A stretch of DNA of 64,000 bases from an uncultured Acidimicrobiia bacterium. GTDB taxonomy: Bacteria; Actinomycetota; Acidimicrobiia; Spongiisociales; UBA5794. The translations under genes and the position numbers were made by a program. The notes under the pieces are model-generated. The model ran no database searches, had not been told where the DNA came from, and saw only the letters and a program-made list of their open reading frames with translations. Location: contig CAVWXP010000008.1 in assembly GCA_963759175.1 (NCBI GenBank), forward strand, positions 179,041 through 243,040, read 5' to 3'. Numbering within the stretch: position 1 is the first letter of the stretch; every line of letters begins with the position of its first letter. This document shows, one piece after another, positions 55,936 to 58,367 of the stretch.

Positions 55936-56213
55936 GAGAAACCCCAAGGAAGCCGAAGCCCCCTTGGGGTTCCCGTTGGACCGACCGACCTTTCGGCCAG
56001 CCGCTCCCCGCTCCGCAAGCGGAGCGGCAGTCGTGGGCCGAAGCCCCCGACCCTCCGAAGCGAACCGTGTGACCGGAGTCACCCGGAGGGCTTGCGCCCG
56101 TCCACCCGAAGGTGTCCACGTCCGGAGCGGCCCGTTTCCGGGCCCGTCGGCTTGCGCCGACCCGCTTCGGGTTTCCCCTCTGCGGACCGCCTCGGGGTTT
56201 CCCCCTTGGCGAT
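55936..56213 (-). ncRNA. Putative structured ncRNA A (~280 nt), family unknown
   Basis: About 10 hairpins capped by GAAA/GCAA/UUCG on the minus strand; upstream promoter-like elements; terminal terminator hairpin; no credible ORF. Confidence 0.7.
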
Positions 56214-56219
56214 GAACGC

Positions 56220-56294
56220 ATCATGGTGCCGCCCCTGCACCAAACGCAAGCCCGATCGCTGGTTCGTTTTCGCGTCCTTCGTGGAGTTTTCGCG
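56220..56294 (-). promoter_or_regulatory. Promoter of RNA A: -10 CATGAT (56220-25), -35 TTGCGT (56244-49), CGCGAAAAC direct repeats (56266-74, 56286-94)
   Basis: Same geometry as the promoter of RNA B. Confidence 0.65.
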
Positions 56295-56311
56295 CGGCCC
56301 GGTACCCTCTG

Positions 56312-56935
56312 GTGATGCGAGCCAGCCGTGCTGCCCTGATCGTCGCGATCTCCGCTCTCGTCGCCACTGGCTGCGGGACGAGCGAACCGACCCAGACCAC
56401 GCCGGGTGTGGTCGGCGGTAGCGGATTGGTGCTCTCTGCTGACGGCATAGGAACCTACGCGATCGGCGACGATGCCGACGTGGTCATCGACGGCGTGTCC
56501 GCCCAGATCGGCGGATGGGACTCGGATTCCCTCGAGCCGGGAACAGCCATCGAGGTGCCAGAGTGCGGCGGCGGGGAGGTACGGCAGATGTCGTGGGGCA
56601 ACCTGGTGCTCGTCTTCGTCGACACGGGAGCGGGCTCGCGATTGTTCACATGGGCCTATGGCTACGACCCCGTGACCGGCAACGCCGAGGACCGACGCGG
56701 ACTCGACCTGAGGACGGACTCGGGTGTCCGGTTGGGAACGCCGCGATCGGAGCTCGAACGAATCCATCGCGGCGAGGTCTCGATCACCGACGACACGTCC
56801 GTCGACATCGCTCGTTTCACCGTCGACGGCGACGAGGAGGAGCACCTCGGTGGTCGGTTCGGTTCGACGGCTCCCGACGCCGTGGTGCAGTTCCTCGAAC
56901 GGATCCCGGGGTGCGCCGGAGCCGCATCGGGATGA
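56312..56935 (+). CDS. Hypothetical lipoprotein
   Basis: Lipobox ATGC; GLVLSADGIG, TDSGVRLGT. Confidence 0.7.
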   Translation: MMRASRAALIVAISALVATGCGTSEPTQTTPGVVGGSGLVLSADGIGTYAIGDDADVVIDGVSAQIGGWDSDSLEPGTAIEVPECGGGEVRQMSWGNLVLVFVDTGAGSRLFTWAYGYDPVTGNAEDRRGLDLRTDSGVRLGTPRSELERIHRGEVSITDDTSVDIARFTVDGDEEEHLGGRFGSTAPDAVVQFLERIPGCAGAASG

Positions 56936-56962
56936 CCGGCCACCGGCATCGGTCGTCGACGC

Positions 56963-57360
56963 AGAAAACCCCGAGGAAGCTCGGCCGAAGCCTTGCCCTC
57001 TCGGGGTTCTGCCGAAGTGGATCGCTCCACTCCAATCCGGACCTCACCGGTTTCCCGGCTCCTTCCGGTCGTCCGTCCGTCTCCTCGCAGCGGTGAGGCT
57101 GCCAAGACCGGTCCCGGACCGCCATCCCGCCGAAGCCGGACGACGTCGCCGTCCCGAACCGAGGTCCGGTGCGGCTGGCAACCGCCTTGCGGCGGTCAGC
57201 CGGTGCCCTTCGGAGGCTGGGCTCCCCCTCGAGGCGAACCATCGGACGCCGAAGCGCTCGATGGGGTCGATGCAGGTCTCCCTGCACCGTCGGCCCGGTT
57301 TCCCGGGTGCTGGTCCCGAGGGATCAGCTGCCGAGCTCTCGGGGCTTTCACCCCTCGAGC
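56963..57360 (-). ncRNA. Putative structured ncRNA B (~400 nt), related to RNA A
   Basis: GNRA/UUCG-capped hairpins on the minus strand; 5' hairpin and terminator homologous to RNA A. Confidence 0.7.
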
Positions 57361-57367
57361 GAGCGGA

Positions 57368-57441
57368 AAGGTAGGGCACCCACCAGCGTGTCGCAACCCT
57401 GGGGACTCATTCGTTTTCGCGTCCTGCGATGGGTTTTCGCG
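57368..57441 (-). promoter_or_regulatory. Promoter of RNA B: -10 TACCTT (57368-73), -35 TTGCGA (57391-96), CGCGAAAAC direct repeats (57413-21, 57433-41)
   Basis: 17 bp spacer; repeats at the same offset from -35 as in RNA A. Confidence 0.7.
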
Positions 57442-57506: not shown

Positions 57507-58367
57507 ATGGACATCGAAGCGGACTCGCCCACCCTCGCTGGTCACGTGCCGACCCCCGCGCTCACGACGCTGTCGCCGAGTCGCGCCAGCGACTTCAAGA
57601 CCTGTCCCCAGCTGTACAAGTTCAAGTCGATCGACAAGATCCCCACCGAGCCGACCATCCACCAGGCGCGTGGAACCACCGCCCATCTCGCCCTCGAGCG
57701 TCTCTTCGCCCTCCCGGCACCCGAACGCACACCCGAGCGCCTGTACGACCTGTTCCGCGACTCCTGGGCCGAGCTGAAGGTCGACGAGTACCCCGATCTG
57801 TTCGCATCGGTCGACGAGGAACGCGACTGGGGCATCGAGAGCCTCCACCTGTTGGCCGCGTACTTCGGCATGGAGGATCCGTCCTCGTTCGAGCCCGAGG
57901 AACTCGAGATGGACCTCACAGTCGACATCGACCACATGACCATCAGGGGCATCCTCGACCGTATGGAGCGCATCGTCGAGGTCGACGACGCTGGAACACC
58001 GCGTGAGCTGCTCGTCATCACCGACTACAAGACGGGACGCGCCCCACCACCCCAGTACGCGAACAAGGCCTTCTTCGCGTTGAAGATCTATGCCCTGTTG
58101 ATCCGGGTCACGCGAGGCATCACCCCTGACCGTGTCCGGCTGTTGTACCTCAACGGACCCACCGAGTACACCCTCGACATCACCGATGCCCAGCTCGATG
58201 CCATGGATCGCCAACTGGCCGCCCTGTGGAAGGCCATCGAACAGGCCATCACCACCGACACGTGGCCCGCACGTACGTCACCGCTGTGCGACTGGTGCGA
58301 CTACAAGGAGGGTCTGTGCCCAGCGTGGAACGACCCGCCGGTCGCGGCCCCCGGTGACGATGGCTGA
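57507..58367 (+). CDS. Stand-alone RecB-family PD-(D/E)XK nuclease with four Cys (probable Fe-S)
   Basis: LSPSRASDFKTCP, GILDR, ITDYKTG, LCDWC..C; TACAGT 6 nt before ATG suggests a leaderless mRNA. Confidence 0.88.
   Translation: MDIEADSPTLAGHVPTPALTTLSPSRASDFKTCPQLYKFKSIDKIPTEPTIHQARGTTAHLALERLFALPAPERTPERLYDLFRDSWAELKVDEYPDLFASVDEERDWGIESLHLLAAYFGMEDPSSFEPEELEMDLTVDIDHMTIRGILDRMERIVEVDDAGTPRELLVITDYKTGRAPPPQYANKAFFALKIYALLIRVTRGITPDRVRLLYLNGPTEYTLDITDAQLDAMDRQLAALWKAIEQAITTDTWPARTSPLCDWCDYKEGLCPAWNDPPVAAPGDDG

Follow-up and report, generated by a model that had tools for sequence, protein, structure and literature searches.

The promoters of two hairpin-rich non-coding RNA genes, units A and B, in a 64-kb stretch of the genome of an uncultured Acidimicrobiia bacterium (C8:179041-243040; hereafter the window) each carry a pair of the box CGCGAAAAC, set at a fixed distance from the -35 hexamer, and the same element precedes replication genes of this genome and of its relatives. 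As far as can be judged from the sequence, it is probably a stereospecific upstream activator site of a clade-restricted, replication-linked regulon, which would be bound by a sequence-specific DNA-binding protein. In kind such an element would be an ordinary transcription-factor site; the observation itself is real and highly non-random, and its interest comes mainly from the fact that, in a group of uncultured bacteria, two structured RNAs absent from the catalogues are linked to replication genes. We infer that the protein binds the paired boxes and acts as an upstream, class-I-like activator of housekeeping-sigma promoters. The box consists of an invariant CGCGAAA core plus two looser bases and is repeated directly at 19-21 bp, mostly 20, with the two copies centred near -76 and -56 on roughly one helix face. 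The proximal box is locked 16 nt upstream of the -35, i.e. 39-40 nt upstream of the -10, from where the factor would contact RNA polymerase from upstream and, most likely, activate. The proposed regulon comprises the two RNA genes, nrdJ, dnaB and the rpmH-dnaA spacer; ftsK and a DUF2642-CpaB-like operon belong to it in some of the genomes. Since the two RNAs share this regulon with nrdJ, dnaB and dnaA, their synthesis is probably coordinated with DNA replication and the cell cycle.

Paired boxes at the two RNA promoters

The exact box CGCGAAAAC is present four times in the window, always on the minus strand and always within the two RNA promoters (Table 1), against a chance expectation of 0.46; none of 100 shuffled sequences reached four copies. 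On the minus strand, unit A reads CGCGAAAAC-TCCACGA-AGGA-CGCGAAAAC-GAA-CCAGCGATCGGGC-TTGCGT, and unit B reads CGCGAAAAC-CCATCGC-AGGA-CGCGAAAAC-GAA-TGAGTCCCCAGGG-TTGCGA. The first-pass annotation, which was made from the letters of the window, had described for both units a box pair with a period of 20 bp, an AGGA-box-GAA context of the proximal box and a TTGCG(T/A) -35 exactly 16 bp further on. All of this is borne out, with exact boxes, a spacer of 11 nt in both pairs and 16 nt between the proximal box and the -35 in both units. Its statement that the DNA between boxes and -35 has diverged holds as well, as an alignment of the two 16-nt stretches leaves the initial GAA and scattered bases as the sole common positions, while the boxes stay exact. 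The predicted RNA starts lie near 56213 for unit A and near 57360 for unit B, as placed from the hexamers alone.

Units A and B are paralogues whose upstream sequence was common at the time of duplication, and the similarity of their promoters might be a mere remnant of this event. We consider this hardly credible. The duplication is old, tandem genes of this kind recurring throughout the family, and the sequence between box and -35 has diverged around exact boxes. Moreover, the boxes also stand at the unrelated genes nrdJ, dnaB and dnaA and are present in a second order-level lineage.

Table 1. Boxes, predicted promoters, RNA units and divergent genes of the region in window coordinates; boxes and promoters are given on the window minus strand.
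Feature	Position	Strand	Details
Distal CGCGAAAAC box, RNA unit A	56286..56294	-	exact match; spans about -80 to -72 relative to the predicted start; one 20-bp period before the proximal box
Proximal CGCGAAAAC box, RNA unit A	56266..56274	-	exact match; about -60 to -52; AGGA-box-GAA; position kept in related genomes
Predicted core promoter, unit A	56220..56249	-	-35 TTGCGT 56249-56244, 18-nt spacer, -10 CATGAT 56225-56220
RNA unit A (predicted)	55936..56213	-	hairpin-rich non-coding RNA ending in a stem followed by TTTC; promoter and terminator prediction
Lipoprotein-like gene, divergent	56315..56935	+	open reading frame; start codon 21 nt from the unit A distal box
Distal CGCGAAAAC box, RNA unit B	57433..57441	-	exact match
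Proximal CGCGAAAAC box, RNA unit B	57413..57421	-	exact match; AGGA-box-GAA
Predicted core promoter, unit B	57368..57396	-	-35 TTGCGA 57396-57391, 17-nt spacer, -10 TACCTT 57373-57368
RNA unit B (predicted)	56963..57360	-	longer paralogue of A (alignment with A); intrinsic terminator 56984-56971 followed by GGTTTTCTG (terminator scan)
PD-(D/E)XK nuclease gene, divergent	57507..58367	+	first gene of a nuclease-adnAB-like operon; Pfam PDDEXK_1, E 2.6e-28; start 66 nt from the unit B distal box

Anatomy and register of the element

The geometry seen in the window is a general one. Of 53 distinct exact pairs, 44 have a spacer of 11 nt, four one of 10 nt and five one of 12 nt (periods of 20, 19 and 21 bp, respectively). 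Wherever the TTG...TAnnnT hexamers are clear, which is the case in 29 promoters, the -35 follows the proximal box after exactly 16 nt. In 54 RNA promoters with an N11 spacer, collected with two mismatches allowed, CGCGAAA is invariant and only box positions 8-9 vary. Outside the boxes, the sequence between them and most of the sequence before the -35 are variable; on the proximal side, positions -50 to -41 retain a weaker pattern, AAnCAGCGnT. With the start assumed to lie about 7 nt after the -10, the boxes occupy about -80 to -72 and -60 to -52. They thus precede the -35 and keep a constant helical phase relative to the core promoter, as is typical for class-I-type sites. They have no dyad symmetry beyond the self-complementary CGCG, and no sub-repeat of 10-11 bp is visible in the box promoters. 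The arrangement box-N11-box-N16-(-35) recurs in 12 families of the order while the intervening bases vary, which fits a protein site in fixed register with RNA polymerase and supports the earlier suggestion that boxes and spacing are under selection.

The first-pass annotation had also offered A-tract or UP-like elements as an alternative. No dedicated factor would then be involved, and the A-runs would serve as phased intrinsic bends or as contacts for the alpha C-terminal domain of RNA polymerase. The proximal A-run (-56 to -53) indeed falls where a distal UP subsite could lie, both A-runs come to about the same face owing to their 20-bp phasing, and further A-rich positions are conserved at -50, -49 and -46. 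However, UP elements are A/T-rich, lie at about -40 to -60 and act by groove shape rather than by G/C bases, whereas CGCG is here as invariant as the A-run (54/54) and is kept in genomes of 34% G+C, where it is rare. The UP-like reading is therefore disfavoured. Furthermore, the second box at -76 (-80 to -72) is beyond the usual UP range, the element is found at a handful of promoters per genome, and it is absent from the rest of the phylum, where the polymerase is the same. Altogether, this explanation appears quite improbable to us.

Phyletic range

Within the order of the bacterium, exact pairs are present in 45 of 151 genomes and 27 of 69 genera, and the reversed-pattern control gave none. 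In its own family, N11 pairs with at most two mismatches were found in 40 of 41 genomes, with 107 sites against one for the reversed control. In the rest of the class, exact pairs are limited to one family (f16) of bacteria with genomes of about 1 Mb and 34% G+C, and no pair with up to one mismatch was found in about 277 sampled genomes from other classes of the phylum. Likewise, no variant of the box repeat was seen upstream of dnaA in 20 genomes that belong to other families of the class, be it in those with a weak MerR homologue or in those without one. An exact 7-mer that is G+C-rich in one part and A-rich in the other is conserved in genomes from 34% to about 70% G+C. In the f16 genomes the box word is nearly limited to one pair per genome. 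One of them was fetched whole (1.02 Mb); CGCGAAA occurs 12 times in it, and its sole pair, counting exact or one-mismatch cores, is located in the rpmH-dnaA spacer. That the only pair of this relative is found at dnaA points to the ancestral function and narrows the search for the factor to a very small repertoire of regulators. In the full text of open papers, CGCGAAAAC or GTTTTCGCG was found solely in oligonucleotides with eukaryotic E2F sites, in primers and in DNAs used for crystallography, and no bacterial regulator was linked to the word.

Genes preceded by the element

The genome that contains the window (2.89 Mb, 65.6% G+C) has 10 exact boxes, six of which form three exact pairs. Two of these pairs lie at the RNA promoters and one, with a 10-nt spacer, upstream of nrdJ, encoding the B12-dependent ribonucleotide reductase. 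From single-box counts, the chance expectation is estimated at about 1e-4 for exact pairs and at about 0.26 for pairs with at most two mismatches, of which four were observed. Relaxed scans furthermore identified CGCGAAAAC-N11-CGCGAAACA in the rpmH-dnaA spacer and CGCGACAAA-N10-CGCGAAAAA upstream of dnaB, directly after the rplI terminator, and a single box, CGCGAAATA, is located 16 nt before TTGCAT upstream of a DUF2642-CpaB-like operon. The preferred distance is visible in the genome as a whole, since TTG follows CGCGAAANN after 16 nt in seven cases, compared with zero to three cases at any other distance between 8 and 29 nt. The first-pass annotation had spoken of a possible dedicated activator site. 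The register indeed fits a protein site, but the element is not dedicated to the RNAs, because it also precedes nrdJ, dnaB, dnaA and a few other cell-cycle genes.

For a broader view, 113 distinct sites from fetched loci were sorted by tblastn with the proteins of the own genome; the loci were picked by motif, so that the class counts are not unbiased frequencies, and gene calls were crude and based on GC3. The largest class, with 66 sites, are RNA genes of the interval between the nuclease gene and a gene for a bPH_2 protein. Nine sites belong to nrdJ, seven to dnaA (plus three f16 loci), four to dnaB (plus the own genome) and 27 to other targets, among them ftsK, the five-box array described below, a gene with a LexA-type box in the promoter spacer and short terminator-ended RNAs; some of these other sites are probable chance matches inside genes. 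In all cases the boxes are oriented towards the RNA, nrdJ, dnaB or dnaA gene. All nine nrdJ sites and four of five dnaB sites have a good -10 (TAGAAC, TAGAAT or TACAAT) 39-40 nt from the proximal box, together with poor hexamers such as TGGGAG, GAGCGA or TACGGA at the -35 position. With this combination of a good -10 and a weak -35, the nrdJ and dnaB promoters look activator-dependent.

Several points weigh against an activator site as the general explanation. The RNA promoters already have good -35 hexamers, and an activator is thus not obviously required there. The RNA promoters are also orthologous between genomes, so part of their similarity is inherited, although the independent sites at nrdJ, dnaB and dnaA count against inheritance as the whole story. 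Finally, the dnaA sites have no sigma-70-like hexamers at the usual distance after the proximal box; the likely dnaA promoter is located about 150 nt further downstream, and three canonical DnaA boxes are also found downstream. The mechanism at dnaA may therefore differ, or the target may be rpmH.

This last point speaks for the idea that the boxes are repressor operators or mainly control the divergent genes, i.e. the lipoprotein gene, nuclease-adnAB or rpmH. The own-genome sites are situated in divergent intergenic regions, with the distal box 21, 66 and about 70-150 nt from the divergent start codons, and throughout the order the RNA gene usually has the nuclease gene as its divergent neighbour. 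However, it is with the promoter of the RNA, nrdJ or dnaB gene that the boxes are aligned, both in their orientation and in the 16-nt register. Many RNA sites have other divergent neighbours (MFS transporter, MscS, HtpX) or a neighbour more than 1 kb away, and the dnaB site after the rplI terminator has no divergent gene. Repressor sites usually overlap the core promoter, whereas these boxes lie at -52 to -80, outside the usual repressor position. We therefore regard control by repression, or of the divergent genes, as unlikely and prefer an upstream activator site. Nevertheless, with distal boxes 21 and 66 nt from the divergent start codons, occupancy could affect the divergent promoters, too, and the lipoprotein and nuclease-adnAB genes may be co-regulated, as the first-pass annotation had suggested.

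Some sites deserve a description of their own. In the nrdJ leader (C10:316377-316660; L003:1500-1790) four kinds of sites are stacked, namely the CGCGAAAAC pair, the palindrome TGTGTCACAC, repeats resembling NrdR boxes and, immediately ahead of the start codon, the perfect DnaA box TGTGGATAA. The palindrome lies inside the spacer of the box-linked promoter and is conserved, being also present in two further loci (L038 and L042), and a second promoter-like sequence, TTGACG-N17-TACACT, is located between the stacked sites. The longest array was found on contig C4 of genome G075 (L093:1548-1640), where five boxes, CGCGAAAAC, CGCGAAGCC, CGCGAAAAA, CGCGAAGTT and CGCGAAAGA, follow each other with a strict 20-bp period before genes for a DUF2642 small protein and a CpaB/RcpC-like protein; the orthologous operon of the own genome (C8:133553-133846) is the one with the single box 16 nt before TTGCAT. 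The LexA-type case is seen at L066:1537-1620 and at L076 (genomes G323 and G318), where the box pair is followed by a promoter with the SOS box CGAACATGTGTTCG in its spacer. The gene downstream encodes a 267-aa protein that has a conserved CGRLGCGVYAAK motif, belongs to no Pfam family and lacks a counterpart in both the own genome and the 1-Mb relative. Finally, the DnaA-box-like words TGTGCACAA, TGTGGATGG, GGTGGATAT and TGTGGAGAA are clustered at C10:301750-301960, distant from dnaA and upstream of a possible leader and a glyoxalase-like open reading frame. The cluster is flanked by CGCGAAAAA and CGCGAAAAG, the latter with TTGTAA 16 nt on and then TAACTT.

RNA units and divergent genes

No Rfam family matched RNA unit A or B, either at gathering thresholds or at permissive E-values. 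Unit A is located between conserved neighbours, the PD-(D/E)XK nuclease and the bPH_2 protein, and tandem RNA genes, each with its own box pair, are common across the family, which indicates that the A/B arrangement of the window is old. The lipoprotein-like gene between the units has no Pfam match, but homologues lie between both RNA genes in the same genus (loci L037 and L048). Its start codon is so close to the distal box of unit A that its promoter must overlap the box region. A TACCCT hexamer is found 3-6 nt before the GTG/ATG start (window 56303-56317), and the mRNA may be leaderless, transcribed from a promoter whose -35 would overlap this distal box.

Box pairs are also followed by other predicted RNAs. 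Short transcripts of about 110 nt that end in a terminator are predicted after the pairs in L017 and L021 (genomes G081 and G073) and in L067 (G311); their sequence is unrelated to RNA A or B, and in L017 and L021 they are divergent from htpX. Moreover, at L023:1440-1960 (G080), the box pair and a conserved segment that is G-rich and A-rich form a module of about 100 nt, which is present as a tandem duplication with a period of 378 bp.

Candidate factors

Proteins of up to 190 residues encoded in the f16 genome were read by eye, and the small proteins common to f16 and the own genome were compared, which left two uncharacterised candidates. The first is a 164-aa MerR_1-type protein (C15:205181-205672), a paralogue of the ResR/McdR-like protein (C15:358503-358907), to which it is 29-33% identical. 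We put it forward tentatively, as the leading candidate. Strict orthologues (E < 1e-60) are encoded in 34 of 35 sampled genomes of the order and in all 13 f16 genomes, while homologues elsewhere in the class are absent or much weaker. The strict orthologues share the recognition helix T-x-HQLRYWD and the wing GRPGxRR, both of which the weaker homologues lack. In this protein, the helix-turn-helix would read CGCG in the major groove, and the arginine-rich wing would lie in the narrow groove of the A-tract. In M. tuberculosis, binding of its paralogue ResR has been found in the regions of nrdH and parB (bioRxiv 10.1101/2022.03.29.486233).

The second candidate, which we consider a long shot, belongs to a family of basic CCCH zinc-knuckle proteins of 62-67 aa with two paralogues per genome (C17:203099-203284 and C7:180580-180777). 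They have an invariant C-x4-C-x12-C-x2-H knuckle and a YPR(L/V)RG tail and match no Pfam or NCBIfam family. A structure model reached a mean pLDDT of 67, and at that low confidence no fold match in the PDB was found. One copy follows a gene pair for an ECF sigma factor and a zinc anti-sigma factor, and in the 1-Mb relative one copy lies directly upstream of dnaK.

Several observations speak against the MerR-type protein. Genome G045 carries boxes but has no MerR-type gene, there is no box upstream of the candidate's own gene, and characterised MerR-type relatives bind palindromes, not direct repeats (PMC9040748, PMC6683498). In addition, the phyletic profile of the zinc-knuckle family is even cleaner, with 35 of 35 genomes of the order, 12 of 12 f16 genomes and three weak matches elsewhere. 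This shows that clade-specific genes are not rare and, therefore, that phyletic matching is only suggestive. Taking all this together, it is somewhat probable that the factor is neither of the two but another protein. Among other proposals, autoregulation of the candidate regulators was rejected, as no boxes are located upstream of their genes. An ArsR-type neighbour of the RNA gene in one genus is not conserved, and the FtsR and ResR/McdR orthologues were set aside because their published motifs are palindromes unlike the box.

Implications

Acidimicrobiia of this kind are abundant in water and soil and almost entirely uncultured, and to our knowledge nothing is known about their replication control. 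A short, exact and searchable word that joins dnaA, dnaB, ribonucleotide reductase and two uncatalogued structured RNAs in one putative regulon makes such a circuit approachable by experiment. For the RNAs, the predicted co-expression with replication genes is a first functional clue. Furthermore, the box pair followed by 16 nt and a -35 can serve as an annotation rule for promoters and RNA genes in metagenome-assembled genomes.

A more far-reaching scenario, which we offer as a speculation with little probability, is that in Acidimicrobiales-like and Actinomarina-like bacteria the clade-specific MerR-like ResR/McdR paralogue (or the clade-specific zinc-knuckle protein) is a master replication regulator that binds phased CGCGAAA direct repeats. 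This regulator would originally have acted at dnaA, and nrdJ, dnaB, ftsK and the two hairpin-array RNAs, which would be abundant, would have come under its control at a later stage. If so, the RNAs would be part of a replication/cell-cycle circuit, e.g., as a feedback sponge or a scaffold, and not bystanders.

Comparison with known systems

In E. coli, Fis acts at rrnB P1, and Fis, DnaA and IciA/ArgP act at the dnaA and nrdAB promoters, from sites upstream of -40 in helical phase with the promoter, linking RNA output and replication genes to the growth state. The boxes resemble such sites in being located upstream of -40 and in helical phase at promoters of RNA genes, which in E. coli are highly expressed ones, and of dnaA and ribonucleotide reductase. 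However, there is no homologue and no relationship between the motifs, as Fis recognises degenerate 15-bp dyads while the boxes are exact 9-bp direct repeats; the lineage is a different one, Acidimicrobiia, and the RNAs driven here are neither rRNA nor tRNA.

The DnaA regulon is similar in its core set of dnaA, ribonucleotide reductase and replication helicase and in its asymmetric 9-bp word, and both canonical DnaA boxes and the new ones are found at dnaA and nrdJ. The boxes might hence be low-affinity sites of DnaA itself or, as half parS sites, of ParB, each of which is present once per genome. The gene set dnaA, nrd and dnaB is like that of DnaA regulons elsewhere, and GTTTTCGCG matches TTWTNCACA at positions 2, 3, 4, 6 and 8, i.e. 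five of the eight specified positions, position 5 being N and the mismatches at positions 7 and 9 being purine transitions. Similarly, in our own comparison, CGCGAAACA is one base off the parS half-site CGTGAAACA. However, canonical DnaA boxes are clustered in the dnaA upstream region, the dnaA-dnaN spacer and, as TGTGGATAA, the nrdJ leader of the own genome, no CGCGAAA box is present in the origin-type cluster, and both lineages have a canonical parS at a distance of 3 kb from dnaA. parS is a 16-bp palindrome, TGTTTCACGTGAAACA, whereas the boxes are direct repeats. Other Acidimicrobiia share DnaA and ParB but do not have the boxes, and a fixed register with the -35 is a property of neither protein. 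The identity of the boxes with DnaA or ParB sites is thus very improbable. A paralogue as factor was likewise rejected for both proteins: besides the presence of canonical DnaA boxes, each genome encodes just one protein with the C-terminal domain of DnaA, and there is one ParB without a paralogue, with its canonical parS separate. In the 1.02-Mb relative (G195, contig C1, about 999200-999320) the dnaA-dnaN spacer of about 117 nt contains two TKTTCAACA words and no canonical DnaA boxes; TTWTNCACA is not enriched in this genome, with 100 copies and at most three in any 600 bp.

The arrays of OmpR/PhoB-type regulators, with 20-bp modules from about -100 to -40, are also direct repeats, and the likeness extends to the span from -80 to -41, which abuts the -35, and to the activator-dependent look where the -35 is weak. 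The box promoters, however, lack the sub-repeat of such sites, and the 1-Mb genome has a single OmpR-type regulator, a PhoB type in the pst-phoU cluster, with no boxes at pst. MtrA or another OmpR-type regulator was therefore dismissed as the factor. The query sequences for MtrA and for BldC (see below) served solely for homology detection.

Among MerR-like proteins, the ResR/McdR protein is of interest as its paralogue is the first candidate described above and as it binds upstream of nrdH and near parB. ResR/McdR and FtsR are MerR-type cell-cycle regulators of Actinobacteria. The site of ResR/McdR (Rv1830) is the palindrome AATnACAnnnnTGTnATT, that of FtsR (Rv1828) is a 25-bp inverted repeat, and FtsR is an activator that binds at -61 to -85 of ftsZ (PMC9040748, PMC6683498). 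Both proteins occur throughout the phylum, whereas the boxes do not, and neither these known motifs nor the inverted repeat generally bound by a MerR dimer corresponds to the boxes. BldC of Streptomyces is MerR-like as well, but binds head-to-tail direct repeats, contiguous at 9-11 bp, with the consensus AATTxxxx(C) (PMC5859096). It was rejected as the factor itself, since tblastn found no homologue in either lineage, and the boxes are not BldC-type sites, as they have a period of 20 bp and a different word. Nevertheless, the BldC repeats are like the boxes in their asymmetric 9-bp unit, which combines an A/T-rich narrow minor groove with G/C contacts a few bases away, and in their variable number, which is one, two or five here. 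By analogy, a MerR-like protein that binds direct repeats in the manner of BldC would be compatible with boxes that do not have the inverted repeat of a MerR-family operator.

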